Source: a virus. From it: a stretch of 64,000 nt of DNA. Position 1 is the first letter of the stretch, and every line of letters begins with the position of its first letter. Below the pieces are notes generated by a model, which saw nothing but the letters and a program-made list of their open reading frames with translations, searched no databases and was not told the DNA's origin. This document shows positions 13,801 to 64,000 of this stretch, one piece after another. The stretch spans positions 32,001-96,000 of IMG/VR virus record IMGVR_UViG_3300008108_000057. One strand, 5' to 3'. The position numbers were made by a program, and so were the translations under genes.

Positions 13801-16800
13801 TGAATGATGTATTAATTGGTGAAAGTGGATCAGAAAACAGAGTAAGAGAATTCCATAGACCAACTCTAGGACTTATGGATCATATATTACCTCATAAACT
13901 GAGATTAGCATCAATTAACAATTCTGATTTTTCTGTATCTGAAGATCACATGATTAAAACAACTTCAGGTTGGAGAACACCGACAGTAGAGATGTGTAAG
14001 ATTCTACATGCCAAGACTTTAGAGATTGAGAATATTGACATTACTCAATTACAACTTGGCGACGATATCATATGCTCCGATGGCTCGCTACTAAGAGTTG
14101 AAAGCATTGAATTTAAAGAAGATGCTCCAGAAATACAATTGTATAACTTTAGATTGTACGGAAACAAAACATACCATGTACGTATGAAAGGTAGTGATAA
14201 GTTTATCTTAGTGCATAACAAGTGCTTTACTTCAGGCACAGAAGTCCTCATGAAGGACAACACTTGGAAGAACATTGAAGATGTTGAAATAAATGATGTA
14301 TTAATTGGTGAAAACGGATCTGAAAATAGAGTAAGAGAATTCCACAGACCAACTCTGGGACTCAATGATCACATCTTACCACATAAACTAAGACTGGCAT
14401 CAATTAATGAATCAAACTTCTCTGTCTCAGAAGATCATATGATCAAAACAACCTCTGGTTGGAGAACACCTACAGTAGAAATGTGTAAGATTCTTCATGC
14501 TAAGACTCTAAAAGGAGACAACATTGATATTTCTCAACTGCAAATTGGTGATGAAATTATATGTTCTGATGGCTCACTACTAAAAGTAGAAACTATTGAA
14601 TTTAAAGAAGATGTTCCAGAACTGCAACTCTACAATTTCAAACTATATGGAAACAAAACATACCATGTACGTATGAAAGGTGCAGAGAAGTTCATGCTAG
14701 TGCATAACAAGTGCTTTACTTCAGGCACAGAAGTATTGATGCATGATGGCTCTTGGAAAAATATTGAAGAAGTCGAACTTGGAGATATACTACTTGGTGA
14801 AGATGGTGCTGAAAATATGGTTAAAGAGTTTCATAGACCTGTACTAGGACTCAATGATCACATCTTACCACATAATCTAAGACTGGCATCTATTAATAAC
14901 TCAGAGTTTTCCGTGTCTGAAGATCACATGATCAAAACAACTTCAGGTTGGAGAACACCTACAGTAGAAATGTGTAAGATTCTACACGCTGAAACCTTGA
15001 AGAATGAAAATATAGACATTACTCAATTACAGCTTGGAGATGAAATCATATGCTCTGATGGCTCATTGTTAACAGTAGACAGCATTGAATTCAAAGAAGA
15101 TGCTCCGGATCTACAACTTTATAACTTCAAACTACATGGAAACAAAACATATCATGTACGTTTGAAAGGTAGTGACAAGTTTATCTTAGTACACAATAAA
15201 GATCCTCTTGCTCAAACGTTCGCTGTTCCTAAAGACAATTATCCAAATGGAGCATTCTTACGTTCAGTTAAGTTGTTCTTCCAATCAAAACCAACTGGAC
15301 CTAATGCTCCTGATGTTGAAGTGTATGTTGTTGGAACGACAAATGGTTACCCTAATGGAAAAAATTTAGATTATTCTGTAGCTAGAGTGAAGGCTCAAGA
15401 TATTAAAATTTCAAATAATCCACATTGGCTTGATCCAGAAACAGCAACGGAATTCGTATTTCCTGCTCCTGTTTACATTCAAAATAGTATTTTTTATGCC
15501 TTTGTTGTATTTTCGCATAGTCCTGACTACACAGTATACTTTGGACAACAAAACGCTGTTGCCGTGCCTTCTACAACAAAAGCATTGCCAACCGATCCTA
15601 ATCCTGCTAACCCAGGGAAAATTGGAGCAACTCCATATGTTGGTGGATTATTCGAATCCCAAAACGCTGTCACCTGGCAAGTTGATCAAACTAAACAAAT
15701 GATGTTTGTAATTGATCAATGTGTATTCACCACATCAGACTCAAAAACTTTGGAATTCTCTTTACCTTCTGGTTTACCATTTAGAGCAATTGATGTTCTC
15801 AACGATATTGTTCATACAACCAGTCCGGCTAGCATCAATAATACTTATGGTAACTTTGCACAAAAGGTACCAGTTATGCGTTCTGATGCAGTAAACGTCA
15901 CTACAACAGATTTTATTCCAACAGGAGCAGTAATTAAGTACACCGCAAGTGCAACATTAAATGATGGTGCAAATACTGTTGTTGGACAGTTCCCTGTGTT
16001 CCCAGGAAGACTTGGATCACCAACATATGATGATGTTGATTATGATGATGGAAGAGGACCAAGAGCGTTGCTTAGAGATGCAAATAACTCATTTAGACTT
16101 TTTGCAACCATGGCAACAGCAGATTCTAACACATCTCCAATTATCGCAGATGATGGTGTAAGTCTGTATAACATTAGATATGTGATTAACAATCTTGAAC
16201 TGTCTAACAGCATGATTGAAATTGTAGATGGAGGAACAGGGTATCATCCAGCAAACGTAGTTGCTACTGTAAGTCCACCTGATATTGGTAGTGATGCTGC
16301 AACATGTGGAGTTGTTCTAACTTCAAATGTAATTACCAATGTGTATTTGACAACCTTTGGTTCTGGGTATGTTAAAACTCCTACAATCACAATTACTGGA
16401 GCGAATACAACTCCTGCTACCGTTCTTATTCGTGGAGAGACTTCATCTGGTGGAGGTAATTTAACAACCGCAAGATACTTGACAAAAGTAGTAAAATTAA
16501 CTCCAGACAATGAATCTGGTGATTTAAGAGTATTCTATACAGCATACAAACCTCTAGGAACAGAAATCTATGTGTATTATAAGATTCTGAATTCGGACGA
16601 TACGGATGTAATTGATGATAAAGAATGGCAATTAATGACTCAGACAAGTACAATATCATATTCACTATCAAAACAAAATCTAATTGAATATGAATGTGCT
16701 CCTGGTGTCAATAATTTAGCAGATAACTTTATTTCATATACAAAAGGAACCGAAACTTACAATTCATTTAATCAGTTCCAAATCAAGTTTGTTATGACAA

Positions 16801-57161: not shown

Positions 57162-58097
57162 ATGAACGACCAAATACTTTGGGTAGAGAAATATCGCCCT
57201 CGTAAAGTAGAAGATTGTATTCTTCATGAAAGTCTGAAGAAAACTTTTCAAGAGTATGTTGATAGAAAGGAGATCCCAAATCTCCTTCTATCTGGTTCAG
57301 CTGGTGTAGGTAAGACTACAATTGCAAGAGCTTTGTGTGACGAAGTAGGTTGTGATTATATCATCATCAATGGTTCTGACGAATCGGGTATCGATGTTCT
57401 CAGAAACAAAATTAAAAACTATGCTTCATCAGTCAGTCTTACTGGTGGAAGAAAAGTCATCATCATTGATGAAGCAGACTATCTAAATCCAAACTCAACT
57501 CAACCAGCCTTACGTGGTGCGATTGAAGAATTTGCATCTAATTGCTCCTTTATCTTTACCTGCAACTACAAGAATCGCATTATTGATCCGATTCATTCTC
57601 GTTGTGCCGTTATTGACTTCAAGACGAATGGTAGCAAAGCTAAACTAGCTACACAATTCATGAAGCGGGTTGAATGGATTCTAGGTGAAGAAAATATCAC
57701 TTACGATAAAGAAGTTGTTGCCGCAGTTATCACAAAACACTTTCCGGATAATCGTCGTATTCTAAATGAGTTGCAACGATACTCTGCATCAGGAACTATT
57801 GATAAAGGTATTCTATCATCCGTATCTGATATTCAAACAAAAGAACTTATTGTTGCTCTCAAAGAGAAAGACTTTGCTGCTGCTCGTAAGTGGGTAACAA
57901 ACAATCTAGACAATGATCCTGCTCGTATCTATCGTAAACTATACGATAACATGTATGATTATTTGCAGTCTAGTTCTATACCTCCCACCGTATTAGTTTT
58001 GGCTAAGTATCAATATCAAGCAGCCTTTGTCGCAGATCAAGAAATTAATCTGATGGCATGTCTAACTGAAATGATGGTTGAATGTGAATTCTCATGA
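57162..58097 (+). CDS. Clamp loader large subunit gp44
   Basis: LWVEKYRP, GSAGVGKTT, IIDEAD, SRC. Confidence 0.96.
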   Translation: MNDQILWVEKYRPRKVEDCILHESLKKTFQEYVDRKEIPNLLLSGSAGVGKTTIARALCDEVGCDYIIINGSDESGIDVLRNKIKNYASSVSLTGGRKVIIIDEADYLNPNSTQPALRGAIEEFASNCSFIFTCNYKNRIIDPIHSRCAVIDFKTNGSKAKLATQFMKRVEWILGEENITYDKEVVAAVITKHFPDNRRILNELQRYSASGTIDKGILSSVSDIQTKELIVALKEKDFAAARKWVTNNLDNDPARIYRKLYDNMYDYLQSSSIPPTVLVLAKYQYQAAFVADQEINLMACLTEMMVECEFS

Positions 58098-58504
58098 CTA
58101 GAACAAAAAAACTGAAAAATCCTTGGAATCAATTACTAAAAAATGTAATAGGAACTCAAAACTTTAATGCTTGGCATCAAGCAAGAGGAAGTAATCGTCC
58201 AGTTAAAAAAATAGAAATAACAGAACAAGATATAATGAATATTTTTGAGAAACAAAAAGGATTAAGTAAGTGGTTGAACATACCTATTGATCCAATGGAT
58301 GTGTTTAAAAAACATTATCCTTTAGCACCTAGCATAGATAGAATAGATAATAATTTAGGATACACTCCAGAAAATATATGTATAGCAACTAGATTTGAAA
58401 ATTATGGATTTAATAAGTGTTCAGACTCTACTAGACAAGAATGTATAATCAAATTGAGAAATTATACGATATCGAGTAATTTGACGGAGTTCTTCAATGG
58501 CTGA
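58094..58504 (+). CDS. Putative HNH-type (homing) endonuclease
   Basis: PSIDRIDN..GY...NI.......N motif; inserted between gp44 and gp62. Confidence 0.6.
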   Translation: MTRTKKLKNPWNQLLKNVIGTQNFNAWHQARGSNRPVKKIEITEQDIMNIFEKQKGLSKWLNIPIDPMDVFKKHYPLAPSIDRIDNNLGYTPENICIATRFENYGFNKCSDSTRQECIIKLRNYTISSNLTEFFNG

Positions 58505-58886
58505 CATATTTAAAGAAGTTGTTCCATCAATCCTTCAGACTAAGAAAGATGTTCTCTTAGAGGAAAACGATGAAAAAGACTATAACCCATTTATCGTAAA
58601 CCGTGCTTTGTCCTATCATCTTGACTGTGTTCCTTATGTCAATCAGATGAATATTCATAATTTTTTAGATAAAAAGCTACAATATCACTATCTTCTAAAT
58701 ACTATCAGACCTATGAAACGGAAGTTTCAACCGTGGCAGAAGTCAGATGAAGATAAGAATCTTGCTTGTGTGAAAGAGTATTTTGGGTATTCTAACAGCA
58801 AAGCCAAAGAGGCTCTCCGGATCTTATCTGATGAACAAATCGCTTATATAAAAACAAAAACAGATAAAGGCGGAGTGAGGAAATAA
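58497..58886 (+). CDS. Clamp loader small subunit gp62
   Basis: Y.PFIVNR.LS...D, LQY.YLLN.IR..KR...W.K, VKEYFGYS..KA..AL.IL. Confidence 0.93.
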   Translation: MADIFKEVVPSILQTKKDVLLEENDEKDYNPFIVNRALSYHLDCVPYVNQMNIHNFLDKKLQYHYLLNTIRPMKRKFQPWQKSDEDKNLACVKEYFGYSNSKAKEALRILSDEQIAYIKTKTDKGGVRK

Positions 58887-59290
58887 TGATTCGTATAGAA
58901 GATATGGTTGAAGTGACGCTAAATGAGAAAGATGATTTCTTGAAGATTCGTGAAACATTGACTCGTATTGGTGTTGCATCCAAAAAAGAAAAGCTGCTCT
59001 ATCAGTCTTGCCACATACTACACAAACAAGGAAAGTACTATATTGTACATTTCAAAGAATTGTTTGCGTTAGATGGTAAGCCTACGGATATTACGGAGAA
59101 TGATTTGGCACGTAGGAATACGATTGCTTTGCTACTAGAAGATTGGGGACTCCTAAAACTAGTAGATTCTAAGAAAGCAGAGGACCTACAAGTCAGTCTA
59201 TCGCAAATCAAGATTATTGGTTTCCGTGAGAAAGATGATTGGCAACTTGTACCAAAATACAATATTGGCAAGAAAGCAAAAAAAGATTGA
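58886..59290 (+). CDS. regA: Translational repressor RegA
   Basis: DDFLKIRETLTRIG, LYQSCHILHKQG.YYIVHFKELF.LDG, W.LVPKY.IG. Confidence 0.96.
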   Translation: MIRIEDMVEVTLNEKDDFLKIRETLTRIGVASKKEKLLYQSCHILHKQGKYYIVHFKELFALDGKPTDITENDLARRNTIALLLEDWGLLKLVDSKKAEDLQVSLSQIKIIGFREKDDWQLVPKYNIGKKAKKD

Positions 59291-59317
59291 CAGAGAATCC
59301 TTAGTGTGATATAAATA
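59287..59317 (+). promoter_or_regulatory. Overlapping sigma70 and T4 late promoter for hsp20
   Basis: TTGACA(59287)-17-TATAAA(59310), where the -10 box is also the late box TATAAATA. Confidence 0.7.
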
Positions 59318-59319
59318 TG

Positions 59320-59376
59320 ACTGTAGATGCCTTCGGGGTCTACAGTTTATTAACTCGCTTAACTAAGGAGACTTAC
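59320..59376 (+). promoter_or_regulatory. ROSE-like RNA thermometer in the hsp20 5'UTR
   Basis: 5' hairpin with C(UUCG)G loop (59320-59346); 3' hairpin CUC-G-CUU/AAGGAG (59354-59370) sequesters the SD with a bulged G in a UCGCU motif. Confidence 0.7.
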
Positions 59377-59823
59377 ATGACTCTTACCTCACTTTTCCCT
59401 TCCCGTTCCGTTTATGAGCCATTCACTGTTGGTTTTGACAAGCTATTTGACCAACTACAAGATACTGCAAACAATATCGCAAAGAATGCTCCAAACTGGC
59501 CACCATACAATATTAAAAAAGTAAAAGACAATAAGTACGTCATTGAAATGGCAGTTGCTGGCTTTGCTAAATCTGATATTGAAGTTACCGTAGAAGGTAA
59601 CAAGTTGGTGATTAAAGGCGAATCAAACGACAATGAAGCGGAAAACTATATCTTCAAAGGAATTGCAAATCGTGCATTCCAGCGTACCTTTACTATTGCC
59701 GACAAGGTAGAGATTAAAGATGCTGAAATGGTTAACGGAATGCTAAGAGTTTGGTTAGAAAACCTATACCAAACACAAGAAACCGTTAAGAAAATTGCAA
59801 TTAAAGAAGCCGATTCCAAGTAA
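59377..59823 (+). CDS. Small heat-shock protein (Hsp20/IbpA family)
   Basis: GFD.LF, PPYNI, IEMAVAGF, GIA.RAF.R.F, A...NGML; ATG at 59377 after AAGGAG. Confidence 0.93.
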   Translation: MTLTSLFPSRSVYEPFTVGFDKLFDQLQDTANNIAKNAPNWPPYNIKKVKDNKYVIEMAVAGFAKSDIEVTVEGNKLVIKGESNDNEAENYIFKGIANRAFQRTFTIADKVEIKDAEMVNGMLRVWLENLYQTQETVKKIAIKEADSK

Positions 59824-59857
59824 TTGGTAATAATGGTGGGGTGCAATGCCCCACCTC

Positions 59858-59886
59858 TTGACATTTGAGTTTGCCTGTGATATACT
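59858..59886 (+). promoter_or_regulatory. Sigma70-type promoter, preceded by GC hairpin 59835-59855
   Basis: TTGACA-17-TATACT with extended TG. Confidence 0.7.
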
Positions 59887-59895
59887 ACATACACT

Positions 59896-60096
59896 ATGAA
59901 AAAACCTTATCAAAAACCCAAAGAAATCTTACAGAAGGTTCGTAACCGACTTCATATTGATGAGGTCTATTACACCTATTCTCATTGGCCTATAAAGGAC
60001 ATAGACGGTATTGCATTTCTTCCTATCATCAAGGAAGTATCTGAACACCCTAAAGTTTTTTATATGCGTAAAGACAACCTGGAGTATGTCAAATGA
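59896..60096 (+). CDS. Hypothetical protein
   Basis: 66-aa ORF after promoter; 4-nt overlap with the next gene. Confidence 0.5.
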   Translation: MKKPYQKPKEILQKVRNRLHIDEVYYTYSHWPIKDIDGIAFLPIIKEVSEHPKVFYMRKDNLEYVK

Positions 60097-60308
60097 TTCT
60101 GAATAAATTATCACAAGCAATGTACAGCCGTAGAATTTTTAACCCTACGAATAAAAAAGACCTAGCTGCATATGGTTATTTTATTCGTAATAGTAAGTGG
60201 GAAAACGGTTGTCCATTTTGGCTTGAATGGCCATATCAAAGTGTACCTGCTATGATTAAAGATAAAATTGTTCGTAATATGTTTGGTGCTGACGAAAGAC
60301 TAATATGA
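60093..60308 (+). CDS. Hypothetical protein
   Basis: 71-aa ORF, W...CPF.LEWPY motif; ATGA overlap with the next gene. Confidence 0.55.
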   Translation: MILNKLSQAMYSRRIFNPTNKKDLAAYGYFIRNSKWENGCPFWLEWPYQSVPAMIKDKIVRNMFGADERLI

Positions 60309-60577
60309 AAAAATATTTGGTTGAAACTGTGAGTATTTTCCGTCATCGGTATGTTGTTGAAGCCAAAGAAGAAGAACATGCATGTGATGAAGTCGTTTGT
60401 GAACGTGATAATTTAAAAGAATTTTCACAATATCATATTGATGAAAATATCACTTCCGTTCGTGAAATAGATGATGCAGAATATTTGAAGGTCTTTGATA
60501 AAGATAATGAGTATCTCAAAGATTGGGAAGAAGAACGGAAGTTCTCATTTGTCAACAAAATAGATTACAAAGACTAA
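60305..60577 (+). CDS. Hypothetical protein
   Basis: 90-aa ORF, YLVETVS.FR.RYVVEA pattern. Confidence 0.6.
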   Translation: MKKYLVETVSIFRHRYVVEAKEEEHACDEVVCERDNLKEFSQYHIDENITSVREIDDAEYLKVFDKDNEYLKDWEEERKFSFVNKIDYKD

Positions 60578-60652
60578 CTGGCTGTAGTACAATGGATAGT
60601 ACAGTGGCCTTCTAAGCCTCTGATCCAGGTTCGATTCCTGGCAGCCGGACCA
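60578..60652 (+). tRNA. tRNA-Arg(UCU)
   Basis: Cloverleaf; loop CT-TCT-AA; GGTTCGATTCC T arm; encoded CCA. Confidence 0.9.
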
Positions 60653-60656
60653 GTTC

Positions 60657-60733
60657 GGGCCGGAAGCTTAATTGGTATAAGCGTCCGACTCATAATCGGG
60701 GGATAGAGAGTTCGAATCTCTCCCGGCCCACCA
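60657..60733 (+). tRNA. tRNA with CAU anticodon, probably Ile2 (lysidine type)
   Basis: GGGCCGG/CCGGCCC acceptor; CCGACTCATAATCGG anticodon arm resembles ileX-type tRNAs; CCA. Confidence 0.85.
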
Positions 60734-60739
60734 AATAAT

Positions 60740-61186
60740 ATGAAAACAAAATATATTAGAGCATACATGGATGTAGCAAAACGATTTGCTGAATTGTCAT
60801 CAGCAAAGCGACTACATGTTGGAGCCATCATAGTCAAAGATGACAGAATTATCTCAATCGGCTATAATGGTATGCCACCTGGTTGGTCTAATATTTGTGA
60901 AGATGTTACAGAAGAAGGAACACTCAAAACCAAACCTGAAGTAATCCATGCAGAAGCCAATGCAATTGCAAAGTTAGCTAAAAGTACAGAATCTGGCAAA
61001 GATGCTACCATGTTTCTTACTCATGCACCATGTATTGATTGTGCCAAACAGATATTTACTGCTGGTATTCAGACGGTCTACTATGAGAAAGACTATAGAT
61101 CCAATGATGGTCTGAGATTCTTATCTTTATGTGGAGTAGAGGTAATTAAGTCCCCAGAGCCGTCAGACGGGTCGGAGAAGGGTTAA
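60740..61186 (+). CDS. dCMP deaminase
   Basis: VGA.IV, GYNG.P.G, HAE.NAI, PC..CAK. Confidence 0.92.
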   Translation: MKTKYIRAYMDVAKRFAELSSAKRLHVGAIIVKDDRIISIGYNGMPPGWSNICEDVTEEGTLKTKPEVIHAEANAIAKLAKSTESGKDATMFLTHAPCIDCAKQIFTAGIQTVYYEKDYRSNDGLRFLSLCGVEVIKSPEPSDGSEKG

Positions 61187-61228
61187 AAGATAAATATTGA
61201 TGCGTAGTGGGTATATAAAGGAAAACCC

Positions 61229-61738
61229 ATGCAATTCAAGATTGTCAAATGTCCAGATAAAGACTTCAAGCCTTTCGTGTCTGAGGCAGCCTCTTTCTTT
61301 GCCCAAGAACTCATCCCAAACACAAGAATACGGAATAACTGTAAAACCAAGATTGTCTTTACCAATAAGATTAAAGAATATGGTTATGCTAGTATTGCAG
61401 GTTTCAATACTAAAAAACAACCTAGAGAATTTCTTATAGAAATACATTCAGGTATCGGTGCAAGATTGATACTAGAAACACTTGCACATGAAATGGTACA
61501 TGTCAAACAATATATCATGAATGAAACTGATGATGTATTGTCTAGATGGAAGAATAAAAAGATAGACCAAAGTAAGGTTGATTATTGGAATCATCCTTGG
61601 GAAATTGATGCATATGGTAGAGAACCAGGGTTGTTATATAAATTTGTGGTACTGAATTGTCTTTGGCACATATTTGATGAATTTAAAAATCCTGATGATC
61701 CAATTATTTCAATTCCGATAAAATGGAAAGTTTCATAA
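61229..61738 (+). CDS. Zincin-like metallopeptidase
   Basis: TLAHEMVH.KQY (HExxH) and Y...PWEI.AY. Confidence 0.75.
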   Translation: MQFKIVKCPDKDFKPFVSEAASFFAQELIPNTRIRNNCKTKIVFTNKIKEYGYASIAGFNTKKQPREFLIEIHSGIGARLILETLAHEMVHVKQYIMNETDDVLSRWKNKKIDQSKVDYWNHPWEIDAYGREPGLLYKFVVLNCLWHIFDEFKNPDDPIISIPIKWKVS

Positions 61739-61756
61739 AAAACAACAAAAAAAGCA

Positions 61757-61785
61757 TTGACAATTCAAAAAGTTTACTATATAAT
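61757..61785 (+). promoter_or_regulatory. Consensus sigma70 promoter for the leader/tRNA operon
   Basis: Perfect TTGACA-17-TATAAT. Confidence 0.9.
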
Positions 61786-61818
61786 GTTAACATATTAAAT
61801 TTAGTTAGAAAGATTACA

Positions 61819-61914
61819 ATGTTGTCCATACGCAAACCCATTATAATTCAGCCAGAGTATCACACAAGTAATTGTGGAGATGCGTTATGGTTCGCCTTTG
61901 GGGTCCGTGTATAG
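61819..61914 (+). CDS. Putative attenuator leader peptide containing all 20 amino acids (MLSIRKPIIIQPEYHTSNCGDALWFAFGVRV)
   Basis: First ATG downstream of the predicted transcription start, weak AGAAAG SD; 31 codons, 29 distinct; 3' end overlaps the antiterminator strand. Confidence 0.75.
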   Translation: MLSIRKPIIIQPEYHTSNCGDALWFAFGVRV

Positions 61915-61945
61915 ACTAGAAATCTTAATCTAAACACAAGACCCC
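61900..61945 (+). promoter_or_regulatory. Putative antiterminator hairpin
   Basis: GGGGTC-C-GTGT-A-TAGA (61900-61915) pairs with TCTA-A-ACAC-AA-GACCCC (61929-61945), taking the 5' arm of the terminator. Confidence 0.75.
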
Positions 61946-61973
61946 TAGCGTAAAAACTAGGGGTTTTTTGTTT
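61938..61973 (+). terminator. Intrinsic terminator/attenuator upstream of the tRNA array
   Basis: ACCCCTAG-cgtaaaaa-CTAGGGGT followed by TTTTTGTTT, ending 5 nt before tRNA-Gln. Confidence 0.88.
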
Positions 61974-61978
61974 ACTGT

Positions 61979-62052
61979 TGGGATATAGTGTAACGGCAGC
62001 ACCGCAGACTTTGACTCTGTTAGTCTAGGTTCAAATCCTAGTATCCCTGCCA
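61979..62052 (+). tRNA. tRNA-Gln(UUG)
   Basis: GCAGA-CT-TTG-AC-TCTGT anticodon arm; T arm; CCA. Confidence 0.9.
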
Positions 62053-62059
62053 TGGTTAA

Positions 62060-62147
62060 GGAAGTGTGGATGAGTGGTTTAAATCAGCAGTCTTGAAAAC
62101 TGCCGACTGTAAAAGGTCCGTGAGTTCGAATCTCACCGCTTCCGCCA
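62060..62147 (+). tRNA. tRNA-Ser(UGA)
   Basis: GCAGT-CT-TGA-AA-ACTGC; long variable arm; GCCA end. Confidence 0.92.
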
Positions 62148-62160
62148 GATAGGAGAAGAA

Positions 62161-62304
62161 ATGGATATAGCAATCATACTATTAACAATATTAGGTTATT
62201 GGATAGGAATGGGTTTTACTGTGGCTGCTATGATGTTTTTGTTTTATAAGTTTGCTGTAATAGTAGGAGATATGGCTGAGAGGCTTAAGGCAGCGGTTTG
62301 CTAA
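62161..62304 (+). CDS. Small hydrophobic peptide (47 aa) overlapping tRNA-Ser(GCU)
   Basis: AGGAG SD; MDIAIILLTILGYWIGMGFTVAAMMFLFYKFAVIVGDMAERLKAAVC. Confidence 0.4.
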   Translation: MDIAIILLTILGYWIGMGFTVAAMMFLFYKFAVIVGDMAERLKAAVC

Positions 62305-62357
62305 ACCGTCGTATTGATTAAACAGTACCGTTGGTTCGAATCCAACTATCTCCACCA
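62266..62357 (+). tRNA. tRNA-Ser(GCU)
   Basis: GCGGT-TT-GCT-AA-ACCGT; long variable arm; ACCA end. Confidence 0.9.
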
Positions 62358-62389
62358 ATTAATGAACAAAAGGAAAGGAGTAATTATGA

Positions 62390-62458
62390 ATGGCTGCGAT
62401 AGTTATAGTTATCATTTTTTTGCTTCTTTATTTTGTGTTTAAGAATGACCTTCGGTAG
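62390..62458 (+). CDS. Small hydrophobic peptide (22 aa)
   Basis: AAGGAG SD; MAAIVIVIIFLLLYFVFKNDLR; stop lies inside the next tRNA. Confidence 0.3.
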   Translation: MAAIVIVIIFLLLYFVFKNDLR

Positions 62459-62538
62459 CTCACGGTAGAGCAGGATGCCTTATAAGCATTTGTCCAGATA
62501 AGACCCAGGATGTGGTTCGACTCCACACCGAAGGACCA
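62449..62538 (+). tRNA. tRNA with UAU anticodon (Ile) and an unusually long variable region
   Basis: CCTTCGG/CCGAAGG acceptor; GATGC-CT-TAT-AA-GCATT; approx. 20-nt variable region; TGTGG-TTCGACT-CCACA; ACCA. Confidence 0.8.
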
Positions 62539-62544
62539 GTTGAT

Positions 62545-62622
62545 GCAACGGTGGCAGAGTGGCCCAATGCAAAGGTCTGCAAAACCTTAAAACCGTCAGT
62601 TCGAATCTGACCCGTTGTTCCA
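62545..62622 (+). tRNA. tRNA-Cys(GCA)
   Basis: AAGGT-CT-GCA-AA-ACCTT; U73 discriminator; CCA. Confidence 0.9.
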
Positions 62623-62640
62623 GTTGCAAAAGTAGTAACA

Positions 62641-62690
62641 TGTTGTATTTGTACAACACGCTTGACAAAACGATTGAGCCAATGTACAAT
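62641..62690 (+). promoter_or_regulatory. Internal sigma70 promoter with upstream palindrome
   Basis: TGTTGTA-tttg-TACAACA (62641-62658), then TTGACA(62662)-17-TACAAT. Confidence 0.75.
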
Positions 62691-62707
62691 GATGTTTCTG
62701 TAGTTGA

Positions 62708-62723
62708 GTTTCTTTAACAATTT
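62708..62723 (+). promoter_or_regulatory. boxA-like Nus antitermination element
   Basis: GTTTCTTTAACAATTT versus rrn boxA TGCTCTTTAACAATTT; lies between promoter and tRNA-Glu. Confidence 0.6.
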
Positions 62724-62734
62724 GAAGTTTCTGT

Positions 62735-62809
62735 GGACCGTTCGTCTATCGGTTAGGACATTGCCCTTTCACGGCAGTAAGAGGAGTTCGATTCTCCTAC
62801 GGTCTACCA
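62735..62809 (+). tRNA. tRNA-Glu(UUC)
   Basis: TTGCC-CT-TTC-AC-GGCAG; T arm; CCA. Confidence 0.9.
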
Positions 62810-62849
62810 TATTAAAGTATATTCATAATAAGTATACTTCAATATGGTT

Positions 62850-63036
62850 TCCGGTTACTACTTTCCTGAAAGTAGCGTGTGGCGACGAGAATTGTCCCGG
62901 TGGCTATGGCACCGTTAGCGCCGTCGAAAGCAGACAACATAGCAGCGTGGACACTACGTAGCAAATCGCTGATTAGTGTTCGGACAGGGTAACAACTCAG
63001 TCTAGGGCTTGCGTGGAAAACAAGTAGCTAGACACC
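62850..63036 (+). ncRNA. Unidentified structured RNA within the tRNA array
   Basis: GC-enriched segment with several helices: CTACTTTC/GAAAGTAG, CGACG/CGTCG enclosing CGGTG/CACCG, GGACACTA/TAGTGTTC, GTCTAG/CTAGAC. Confidence 0.5.
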
Positions 63037-63092
63037 TTAATTTTTTTACAAAGGAGACCTGTCATGGATAGTGACAAGAGTGGTAAGATTAT

Positions 63093-63167
63093 GGGTGCGT
63101 AACTCAATGGCAGAGTAATCGGCTTTTAACCGATAAGTTGTGAGTTCGAGTCTCACCGCACCTACCA
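63093..63167 (+). tRNA. tRNA-Lys(UUU)
   Basis: ATCGG-CT-TTT-AA-CCGAT; CCA. Confidence 0.92.
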
Positions 63168-63201
63168 TATAAAAGTATTTTGTATCAGAATATTTTTATA
63201 T

Positions 63202-63278
63202 GGCACTTTAGTTCAGTTGGTTAGAACGCTGCCCTGTCACGGCAGAGGTCAGGGATTCGAGTTCCCTAAGTGTCGCCA
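63202..63278 (+). tRNA. tRNA-Asp(GUC)
   Basis: CTGCC-CT-GTC-AC-GGCAG; GCCA. Confidence 0.92.
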
Positions 63279-63285
63279 AATTTAT

Positions 63286-63360
63286 TCCGGTGTAGTTCAG
63301 TGGTAGAACGGTGGACTGTTAATCCATATGTCGTTGGTTCGATCCCAACCTCCGGAGCCA
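63286..63360 (+). tRNA. tRNA-Asn(GUU)
   Basis: GTGGA-CT-GTT-AA-TCCAT; GCCA. Confidence 0.92.
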
Positions 63361-63365
63361 ATTAT

Positions 63366-63450
63366 GGGTGTCGAGAAGCATTGGTGACTTCAGCAGACTG
63401 TAAATCTGTCGCCTTCGGCATACGGGGTTCGAATCCCTGGGCACCCACCA
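63366..63450 (+). tRNA. tRNA-Tyr(GUA)
   Basis: GCAGA-CT-GTA-AA-TCTGT; variable arm GCC-TTC-GGC; ACCA. Confidence 0.9.
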
Positions 63451-63530
63451 AATAAAAGTATCAAAGGCTATATACAGAATACATTATTCGTACTTGAATT
63501 ATTATCAAATTTTTTAGTGAAGGAATCCAA

Positions 63531-64000
63531 ATGAAAACTCGTGGATTAAATTATGGGGCCAGTGTTGGTCTTGAAGCATATGATATAGACTGGAACTCTA
63601 AAGAAGAAATTGATGAATTAGGTAGACTTTGTGCTAGTCAATGTATTGTTTTTGTCAATGAAAGAATACCTACTGAACAAGTATATAACATTATGACTCA
63701 ATGGGGCGACTCAAGCCGAGCCCTTATACATGAATATGTTATTCAACGTAAAATTTCAGGTAGACATTGGAGAGAGATATTACTTAATTTAGGATATATC
63801 GCTAAGGATGCAGGGAAGGACATCAGTCCGGCAGTATCTATGGTAAGTTATAAAAAGGATGATGATGGTCGTCCTCGAGGCATTTTCAGTAACGGTGAAT
63901 TAGATTGGCATAGTGACCAATGTGCATTTGATGATGCACAACGTATTATTGGTTTACAAAGTATAAGTGACACGGTAAACAGTCAAACAACATTTTTATG
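63531..64000 (+). CDS. TauD/TfdA-like 2OG-Fe(II) dioxygenase (3' partial)
   Basis: Manual translation MKTRGLNYGASVGLEAYDID...G.F.NGELDWHSD...QTTFL; HxD motif; AAGGA RBS; open to the window end. Confidence 0.7.
   Translation, partial: MKTRGLNYGASVGLEAYDIDWNSKEEIDELGRLCASQCIVFVNERIPTEQVYNIMTQWGDSSRALIHEYVIQRKISGRHWREILLNLGYIAKDAGKDISPAVSMVSYKKDDDGRPRGIFSNGELDWHSDQCAFDDAQRIIGLQSISDTVNSQTTFL

Follow-up and report, generated by a model that had tools for sequence, protein, structure and literature searches.

Transcription attenuators of the leader-peptide type, such as trpL, hisL, leuL, thrL, and pheL of Escherichia coli and Salmonella, combine a short leader open reading frame (ORF) with RNA segments that pair in alternative ways (1:2, 2:3, and 3:4), the 3:4 pairing being an intrinsic terminator. 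The same components are found on the plus strand at positions 61757 to 61978 of a 64,000-nucleotide (nt) stretch of phage DNA (positions 32,001 to 96,000 of the IMG/VR virus record IMGVR_UViG_3300008108_000057; the whole stretch is referred to here as the window), upstream of phage tRNA genes. As in trp-type attenuators, region 1 lies inside the ORF, and a ribosome near the stop codon would block the 2:3 pairing. The trp-type leaders, however, carry a run of codons for a single amino acid and control biosynthetic enzymes, whereas the phage leader contains all 20 kinds of amino acids, one to four times each, and precedes tRNAs. It differs further in having a conserved hairpin inside the ORF, in being encoded by a phage, and in lacking a match to any Rfam leader. 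Because there is no codon run for a sensed amino acid, we regard this candidate element as a variant of the leader-peptide attenuators.

The leaders of ilvGMEDA and ilvBN (Ile, Leu, and Val) and of thr (Thr and Ile) likewise sample several product-related amino acids, but only two or three of them and in clusters, whereas the phage leaders contain 18 to 20 kinds that are evenly spread. In pheST (leader, pheM) and T-box systems, transcription attenuation likewise makes translation-apparatus genes responsive to the state of decoding or tRNA charging. Unlike the phage leader, pheM is Phe rich and controls a synthetase, while T-boxes, to which the phage leader has no match, bind uncharged tRNA directly and need no ORF. 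We know of no tRNA genes under pheM-type or T-box control. In ermCL, bmrB, toiL, and other drug-responsive leaders, and in the leaderless Cys-rich short ORFs of mycobacteria, a stalled ribosome similarly remodels the RNA and relieves termination. Unlike the phage leader, these stall-sensing leaders act on resistance or cysteine genes in response to drugs or a single amino acid, and to our knowledge no report describes one that covers all amino acids or lies upstream of tRNA genes. In the published full-text literature, we found neither a leader-peptide attenuator before tRNA genes (phage or bacterial) nor a leader with all 20 amino acids.

We propose as the probable, although far from certain, reading of this locus that a ribosome-dependent transcription attenuator of the trp/his type governs whether transcription reads through to the first genes of the phage tRNA array. 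To a more specific version, we give about even chances: that the leader has been selected to hold every amino acid, as a decoding-capacity meter, and that transit time through it sets the phage's own tRNA transcription. Such a meter would work by feedback, with translation of one copy of each amino acid serving as the test of tRNA supply. The parts of the leader are as follows.

61757-61785, plus strand: promoter, TTGACA (61757-61762), 17-nt spacer, and TATAAT (61780-61785), a 12/12 match
61807-61812, plus strand: weak Shine-Dalgarno (SD)-like sequence AGAAAG, 6 nt 5' of the ATG, identified from the sequence
61819-61914, plus strand: leader ORF of 31 codons plus TAG (ATG at 61819; TAG at 61912-61914), with all 20 amino acids
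61823-61840, plus strand: region 1 (codons 2 to 8), complementary to region 2, a predicted anti-antiterminator, from pairing in the minimum free energy (MFE) fold
61850-61892, plus strand: central hairpin within the ORF (codons 11 to 25), from the fold and compensatory changes
61899-61920, plus strand: region 2, 5' strand of the predicted antiterminator, made up of the final codons of the ORF with the stop and the next 6 nt, from duplex prediction
61924-61946, plus strand: region 3, 3' strand of the predicted antiterminator, the final 9 nt of which are the 5' arm of the terminator, from duplex prediction
61938-61973, plus strand: intrinsic terminator (3:4), a stem-loop at 61938-61967 followed by a T-tract (-15.5 kcal/mol)

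The promoter is the sole 12/12 match within positions 58000 to 64000, and the transcript is predicted to start near position 61792, 7 nt past the -10 box. Positions 10 to 25 of the leader peptide are occupied by 16 different residues in succession. The terminator stem (61938 to 61967) has 11 pairs, 5 of them G-C, with an 8-nt loop, and the T-tract consists of T6 at 61964 to 61969 with further T up to 61973. An earlier note on this DNA, made from the letters alone, had described the promoter, the ORF with its 20 amino acids and 16-residue run, and the terminator before tRNA-Gln, and we located all of these at the positions that it gave. Its 5-nt gap between the terminator and tRNA-Gln holds if a GTTT extension is included; counted from the T6 run, tRNA-Gln starts (at 61979) after 9 nt. 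The leader frame would grow to 63 codons, spanning the promoter, if it began at an in-frame ATG (61723) that lies within the end of the preceding gene for a 169-amino-acid (aa) protein and has no SD. This extension is probably incidental.

Relatives were collected from IMG/VR and metagenome contigs by searching with the upstream protein, which yielded approximately 100 loci. A hidden Markov model of the leader run over these loci identified the unit in 18 distinct sequence variants (referred to by L numbers) from uncultured related T4-like phages. The upstream proteins of the loci were 46 to 100% identical to that of the window. The unit always lies 3' of the 169-aa gene, with an additional gene of approximately 0.6 to 0.8 kb in between in L019, L047, and L051, and on contigs extending far enough it precedes tRNA-Gln or, in L045, tRNA-Ser. 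The -10 region CTATATAAT/ACT is common to all 18 units, the terminator was found in each of them, and region 2 invariably lies within the last 5 to 10 codons or at the stop codon.

The 2:3 duplex was predicted across the 18 units (-13.5 to -24.4 kcal/mol; P <= 0.04 each), with an overlap of 8 to 22 nt with the 5' arm of the terminator. Its strands are widely divergent yet complementary (for example, GGGGGTTTGTG/CACAAACCCCC, AGAGGTTA/TAACCTCT, GGGGTTTCT/AGAAACCCC, and GGGGTTAGTGGAA/TTTCACTAAACCTC). When the sequences were aligned without fitting to a structure, the 2:3 core helix was 87.1% paired, with both sides changed in 6 of 10 pairs, and its covariation score was 0.191, versus 0.135 for shuffles (0/500) and 0.06 to 0.12 for slid partners. 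The 1:2 core helix was 80.8% paired over the 18 sequences, with both sides changed in 3 of 7 pairs. This pairing is part of the MFE fold of nearly all units; in L044 it is weak (-7.1), and in L041, L047, L050, and L054 region 2 finds its best partner deeper in the ORF (codons 8 to 23) than codons 2 to 9. Compensatory changes also occur in the central hairpin (CACA/TGTG to CGCA/TGCG; ACCA/TGGT in other clades), which is possibly a pause or spacer element. For the long-range helices, these estimates rest on counts over named structures and on per-sequence duplexes. Antiterminator and terminator, which had been proposed to exclude each other, do share a strand, and this arrangement is conserved and covaries in the relatives. 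The parts, their conservation, and the covariation of the helices are thereby well supported by sequence comparison. After the 169-aa gene, the leader ORF is missing from two relatives, which represent natural loss variants: L052 (2010 to 2087) retains only a terminator-like hairpin and a promoter, and in L021 (3501 to 3513) the 169-aa gene leads directly into tRNA-Gly.

The leader RNA of the window (61792 to 61978) folds at -55.5 kcal/mol (z = -5.35 versus shuffled sequence). In the MFE structure, positions 61823 to 61840 are paired with 61901 to 61916, the hairpin at 61850 to 61892 lies in between, and the terminator follows. Region 1 and this pairing (1:2 duplex, -17.3 kcal/mol) had been missed by the earlier note. 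The pairing that it did describe, between the end of the ORF and the segment containing the 5' arm of the terminator, was recovered as the 2:3 duplex of 61899 to 61920 with 61924 to 61946 (-20.2 kcal/mol; P = 0.007 versus shuffles; 9-nt overlap with the 5' arm). The four-segment arrangement predicted in this way (1:2, 2:3, and 3:4) is the layout of the trp attenuator. In the full transcript without a ribosome, 1:2 and the terminator were predicted at equilibrium (terminator probability, 0.95). Region 1 would thus sequester region 2, which makes it doubtful that the antiterminator forms when there is no translation, as had been suggested. Because region 1 pairs with the antiterminator strand, an untranslated leader would more likely terminate, as in trp superattenuation.

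Ribosomes were modeled by blocking a 29-nt footprint at every A-site position. For the transcript before region 4, the 2:3 pairing was predicted with a ribosome at codons 2 to approximately 23 and was abolished once the footprint covered the last 6 to 10 codons, in 18/18 units in both cases. The proposed switch would operate as follows. The strong promoter would yield a leader of approximately 180 nt, and a ribosome would translate the 31-codon ORF, each amino acid of which is used only one to four times. A fast ribosome would reach the last codons or the stop codon and cover region 2 or, in relatives with longer ORFs, sit between regions 2 and 3. With region 2 blocked, the 3:4 terminator would fold and transcription would end 9 nt before tRNA-Gln. 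A ribosome delayed at approximately codons 2 to 23 would mask region 1 and leave region 2 free to pair with the emerging region 3; no terminator would then form, and the polymerase would continue into the tRNAs. A leader that samples every amino acid would let the switch report a slowdown at nearly any class of codon, or the speed of elongation as a whole. A switch sensing all amino acids would therefore fit a gene set that supplies tRNAs for 19 to 20 amino acids. Beyond the parts themselves, we infer that the leader is translated, together with how fast the pairings compete, which way the response runs, and what triggers it in the cell, including any response to starvation or to tRNA-cleaving defenses.

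The amino-acid content of the leader is central to this proposal. The leader of the window has no codon runs, and 11 kinds of amino acids occur in it once. Such completeness, from which the earlier note had argued, exceeds what chance would give for 31 codons: P is approximately 9e-5 to 3e-4 when residues follow the composition of the genome and 1.2e-3 when they follow that of the ORF itself. Among 32,502 stop-free stretches of 31 residues in the window, only five contained all 20 kinds, all of them in the leader ORF. The peptides of the 18 units have 20 kinds in 11 cases, 19 in 6, and 18 in 1 (mean, 19.6), while the same nucleotides give means of 15.6 and 15.9 in the other frames and 16.4 in antisense. 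For 15 nonredundant lineages, a column-permutation null gave 17.69 +/- 0.27 kinds versus 19.53 observed (0/20,000 permutations). When the consensus was fixed and the rest was random, 15/15 lineages lay above the null mean (P = 0.005 to 0.49), with a Fisher value of approximately 1e-5 that is approximate only, because the lineages are related.

His, Cys, and Trp shift position between clades and are not lost. His is located at position 5 to 7, at position 15, or past Trp; Trp lies within the hairpin in L057; and Arg5 and His15 of the window correspond to His5 and Arg15 in the L009 group (an R5H/H15R swap). Because completeness persists through heavy sequence turnover and the rare residues move, these comparisons indicate selection on amino-acid composition and apparently not on sequence. 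The features for which the earlier note would have related genomes tested, a short ORF, near-complete amino-acid coverage, and covarying stems, persist despite divergence. Both this selection for completeness and the coding constraint presented below are well supported at the sequence level. Two further candidate signals were rejected. Matching of the leader codons to phage tRNA anticodons is no enrichment, as nearly all codons are cognate, which is trivial with 25 tRNAs. An excess of distinct synonymous codons beyond amino-acid diversity was a weak trend only (P = 0.004 to 0.7) and is explained by rare codons sitting in stems.

The same composition allows an alternative that we consider unlikely, although the least so of three: that the attenuator measures mean elongation speed or ribosome availability and is not an OR gate for any of 20 shortages. 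Its triggers could include host shut-off, ribosome-targeting toxins or antibiotics, and low GTP or EF-Tu, and selection would have evened out the composition to keep any one amino acid from dominating the signal. This is consistent with the lack of amino-acid runs and with the presence of most kinds once or twice. Rare codons make up 18 to 30% of the leader versus 8% genome-wide and would slow transit generally, and classical attenuators (trpL, hisL, and leuL) need several regulatory codons for a strong response. The rare codons coincide, however, with G+C-rich helices and are maybe a by-product of them, and in severe starvation one hungry codon would stall a ribosome for longer than the decision window of approximately 1 to 2 s.

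The sequence of the leader peptide appears to be conserved only weakly. The proportion of synonymous differences (pS) was 0.10 in the leader versus 0.37 in the flanking gene in one comparison, and 0.10 versus 0.62 and 0.14 versus 0.81 in two others; the ratio of nonsynonymous to synonymous changes (dN/dS) was 0.14 to 0.69 in the leader and 0.06 to 0.17 in the neighboring gene. The residues that are kept (EYRT, NC.D, SW, and G-V/F) lie on RNA stems, where the third codon positions are frozen too. The constraint thus appears to be on RNA structure plus an open frame, which disfavors a peptide acting via its own sequence. It also bears on a second alternative, in which the cassette is an independent small gene: a peptide of 31 to 46 aa or the leader RNA would act in trans, a constitutive terminator would insulate the tRNA array, and the array would be expressed from its own promoters plus leak-through. 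The complete cassette with its own strong promoter and terminator, the separate promoter past the terminator in most relatives, and the peptide consensus (..HKP...QP.EYRT..NC.D.SW..GVCV) speak for such a gene. The trans-acting leader peptides and attenuator RNAs described for Sinorhizobium trpL provide a precedent (PMC7298713, PMC6614838). We nevertheless consider it improbable, and more so than the measurement of elongation speed. The location of the conserved residues on stems, the frozen third positions, the pS far below that of the neighbor, and a dN/dS of up to 0.69 argue against it, and it leaves unexplained both the covarying pairing between the ORF end and the 5' arm of the terminator and a complete set of amino-acid kinds with moving positions. 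The leader region matched no Pfam or PHROG family, and the 46-aa leader peptide of L022, used as a homology query, gave no matches.

The leader frame itself is probably translated. It is open over 31 to 46 codons in 18/18 units, versus 1 to 6 stops in the other two frames. Pairwise gap runs are a multiple of 3 in 267 of 364 cases (73%) inside the ORF versus 65 of 453 (14%) downstream of the stop codons. Start signals appear to be replaced, not lost, among the units. In the window's clade, ATG follows a weak SD. The SD reads AGGAAG in L015, AGGA in L019, GGAG in L046, L051, and L057, and AAGGAG in L054. The start codon is GTG or TTG behind GGAG or AAGGAG in L046, L051, L054, and L057 and GTG behind the weak AGAAAG in L040. 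In L020, L041, L042, L044, L047, and L050, an ATG stands at the predicted transcript start, approximately 7 nt past the -10 box, and these units would be leaderless, as some stall-sensing leaders are. To a noncoding structured RNA with an incidental open frame (a stable small RNA, or a 5' leader freed by RNase P at tRNA-Gln, and therefore an unclassified RNA with no matching Rfam family), we give hardly any credence: the strong fold (z = -5.35), nucleotide conservation above that of the flanking gene, and the precedent of T4, which has stable RNAs inside its tRNA cluster, would suit it, but an incidental frame is not expected to combine openness in every unit, 3-nt-multiple indels only inside the ORF, and replaced starts, and the amino-acid diversity is specific to the ORF frame.

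The genes that the attenuator would control belong to a set of 25 tRNAs for 19 amino acids, with none for Phe, located in one region of approximately 9 kb (92578 to 101356 of the genome; from 60578 in the window) that begins just 5' of the leader. In the L022 lineage, 26 tRNAs for all 20 amino acids follow the leader. Under the classical rule, the amino acids found in a leader are those related to the product of the operon; by analogy, an all-amino-acid leader before an all-amino-acid tRNA set would follow this rule, although the match is not exact. Two features downstream of the terminator bear on the extent of control.

61979-62622, plus strand: tRNA-Gln(UUG), tRNA-Ser(UGA), tRNA-Ser(GCU), tRNA-Ile(UAU), and tRNA-Cys(GCA), which no promoter separates from the terminator
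62662-62690, plus strand: next promoter, TTGACA, 17-nt spacer, and TACAAT, with a TGTTG..CAACA hairpin before it, identified from the sequence

In the window's clade, the attenuator thus appears to be the only visible route to tRNA-Gln through tRNA-Cys. The promoter at 62662, which the earlier note had also reported, is indeed present and could drive tRNA-Glu and the later genes independently. The description of the leader as gating the tRNA array is therefore too strong, given this later promoter and the promoters in related units considered next.

A number of observations weigh against the proposed attenuator. Its reach is limited: only five tRNAs (Gln, Ser, Ser, Ile, and Cys) depend on read-through, later segments of the array having their own promoters (62662 in the window; 2134 and 5212 in L121). 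Of the 17 related units, 11, which exclude the window's own clade and the truncated L046, carry in the interval from the terminator to the first tRNA a hairpin plus a promoter of the sigma-70 type (TTGACA or nearly so); the attenuator there could therefore only supplement a basal tRNA supply with transcripts that start at a near-consensus promoter and read through. The leader and the tRNA repertoire match imperfectly. The leader of the window contains Phe without a phage tRNA-Phe, both Phe codons lying outside the predicted sensing window, and L028, whose leader has Tyr, encodes tRNAs for 19 amino acids in the locus covered, with no tRNA-Tyr there. Most amino acids occur just once or twice per leader, versus the codon runs behind a strong classical response, and the SD of the window leader is weak. 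On the structural side, RNAalifold on the raw MAFFT alignment recovered two helices only, the central hairpin and the terminator, each by its core. The stop codon lies 20 to 30 nt past the core of region 2 in L020, L022, L040, and L047, so a terminating ribosome would leave region 2 uncovered there. No close cultured relative was found either: blastn and tblastn searches of 50,697 phage records returned matches to tRNA-Gln and remote (<40%) relatives of the upstream gene, and nothing else.

Folding of the full-length transcript at equilibrium belongs to the same set of observations. In the window's clade, the terminator persists at any blocked position (P of approximately 0.8 to 1.0), and an equilibrium switch, with the terminator lost when the ribosome is stalled early, was obtained only in L019, L040, L041, L042, L050, and L051 (6/18 units). 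Folding with a blocked footprint, by which the earlier note would have its two hairpins compared, thus bears out the loss of 2:3 before region 4, whereas the terminator is kept at equilibrium in the window's clade. Because equilibrium folding shows no switching there, we retain the switch for this clade as a kinetic model only, in which 2:3 would form first and delay 3:4. A terminator hairpin that is the most stable element, and hence a kinetic switch, is a feature shared with E. coli trp: its 3:4 helix likewise exceeds the others in stability, and the kinetic argument applies to it as well.

Codon-usage compensation, late supply after host shut-off, and escape from tRNA-cleaving defenses have been proposed as reasons for near-complete phage tRNA sets. 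If the attenuator operates as suggested, the phage would measure decoding performance and adjust its tRNA supply, and the hypotheses on tRNA sets would become testable with a 180-nt element. Leader-peptide attenuation would then extend beyond amino-acid and synthetase operons to tRNA genes, and sensing would widen from a single amino acid to all 20. That a fast-evolving peptide of 31 to 46 residues keeps all 20 amino acids through compensating changes is itself unusual, and the leader is compact enough for a synthetic translation-stress reporter.

The source record is the 163-kb IMG/VR genome of an uncultured lake virus (98% complete by CheckV; 36% G+C), assigned to T4-like phages with RegA, Hsp20, dCMP deaminase, and further genes as markers. 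The gene order is the 169-aa gene (end, 61738), the promoter, the leader ORF, the terminator, and tRNA-Gln, Ser, Ser, Ile, and Cys. A cmscan search of positions 60400 to 64000 against Rfam at E <= 1 gave only tRNAs and chance matches, none of them in 61757 to 61978, and this region matched none of the Trp_leader, His_leader, Leu_leader, Thr_leader, and T-box covariance models. The cassette is single: nhmmer found no further copies of it in the genome, and no other terminator cassette was found in the remaining tRNA array.

Several minor features of the array were also observed. A TGTTG..(loop)..CAACA hairpin recurs immediately 5' of TTGACA-type promoters (62637 to 62690 in the window); it occurs just past the leader terminator in L019, L020, L022, L040 to L044, L047, L050, L051, and L054 and 5' of the leader promoter in L045 and L057. 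It may be a protein-binding or processing element linked to early promoters in the clade. Long AT-rich hairpins that start in the 3' end of a tRNA (CCATAT(A/T)AAAGTAT ... ATACTT..ATATGG) are located at 62800 to 62845 and 63165 to 63203 in the window and at approximately 2350 to 2430 in L050; these may be processing signals that include the CCA end. Protein genes are present among the tRNAs, including those for 2OG-oxygenase-like, PBP-like, and GroES-like proteins. Small hydrophobic ORFs lie between tRNA genes at 62161 to 62304 (47 aa, overlapping the start of tRNA-Ser(GCU)) and at 62390 to 62458 (22 aa), with strong SD sites before the 47-aa ORF and before an ATG at 62387, just 5' of the 22-aa ORF. 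A G+C-rich, apparently structured segment of approximately 190 nt (62850 to 63036) occupies the interval between tRNA-Glu and tRNA-Lys; no Rfam family matched it at E <= 1, and L041, L042, and L044 have comparable segments 3' of tRNA-Gln. Outside the window, ARAGORN predicted a permuted tmRNA at 14967 to 15356 of the genome. Finally, tRNA-Ile(UAU) (62449 to 62538; 90 nt) has a long variable region and is kept in all array-bearing relatives.

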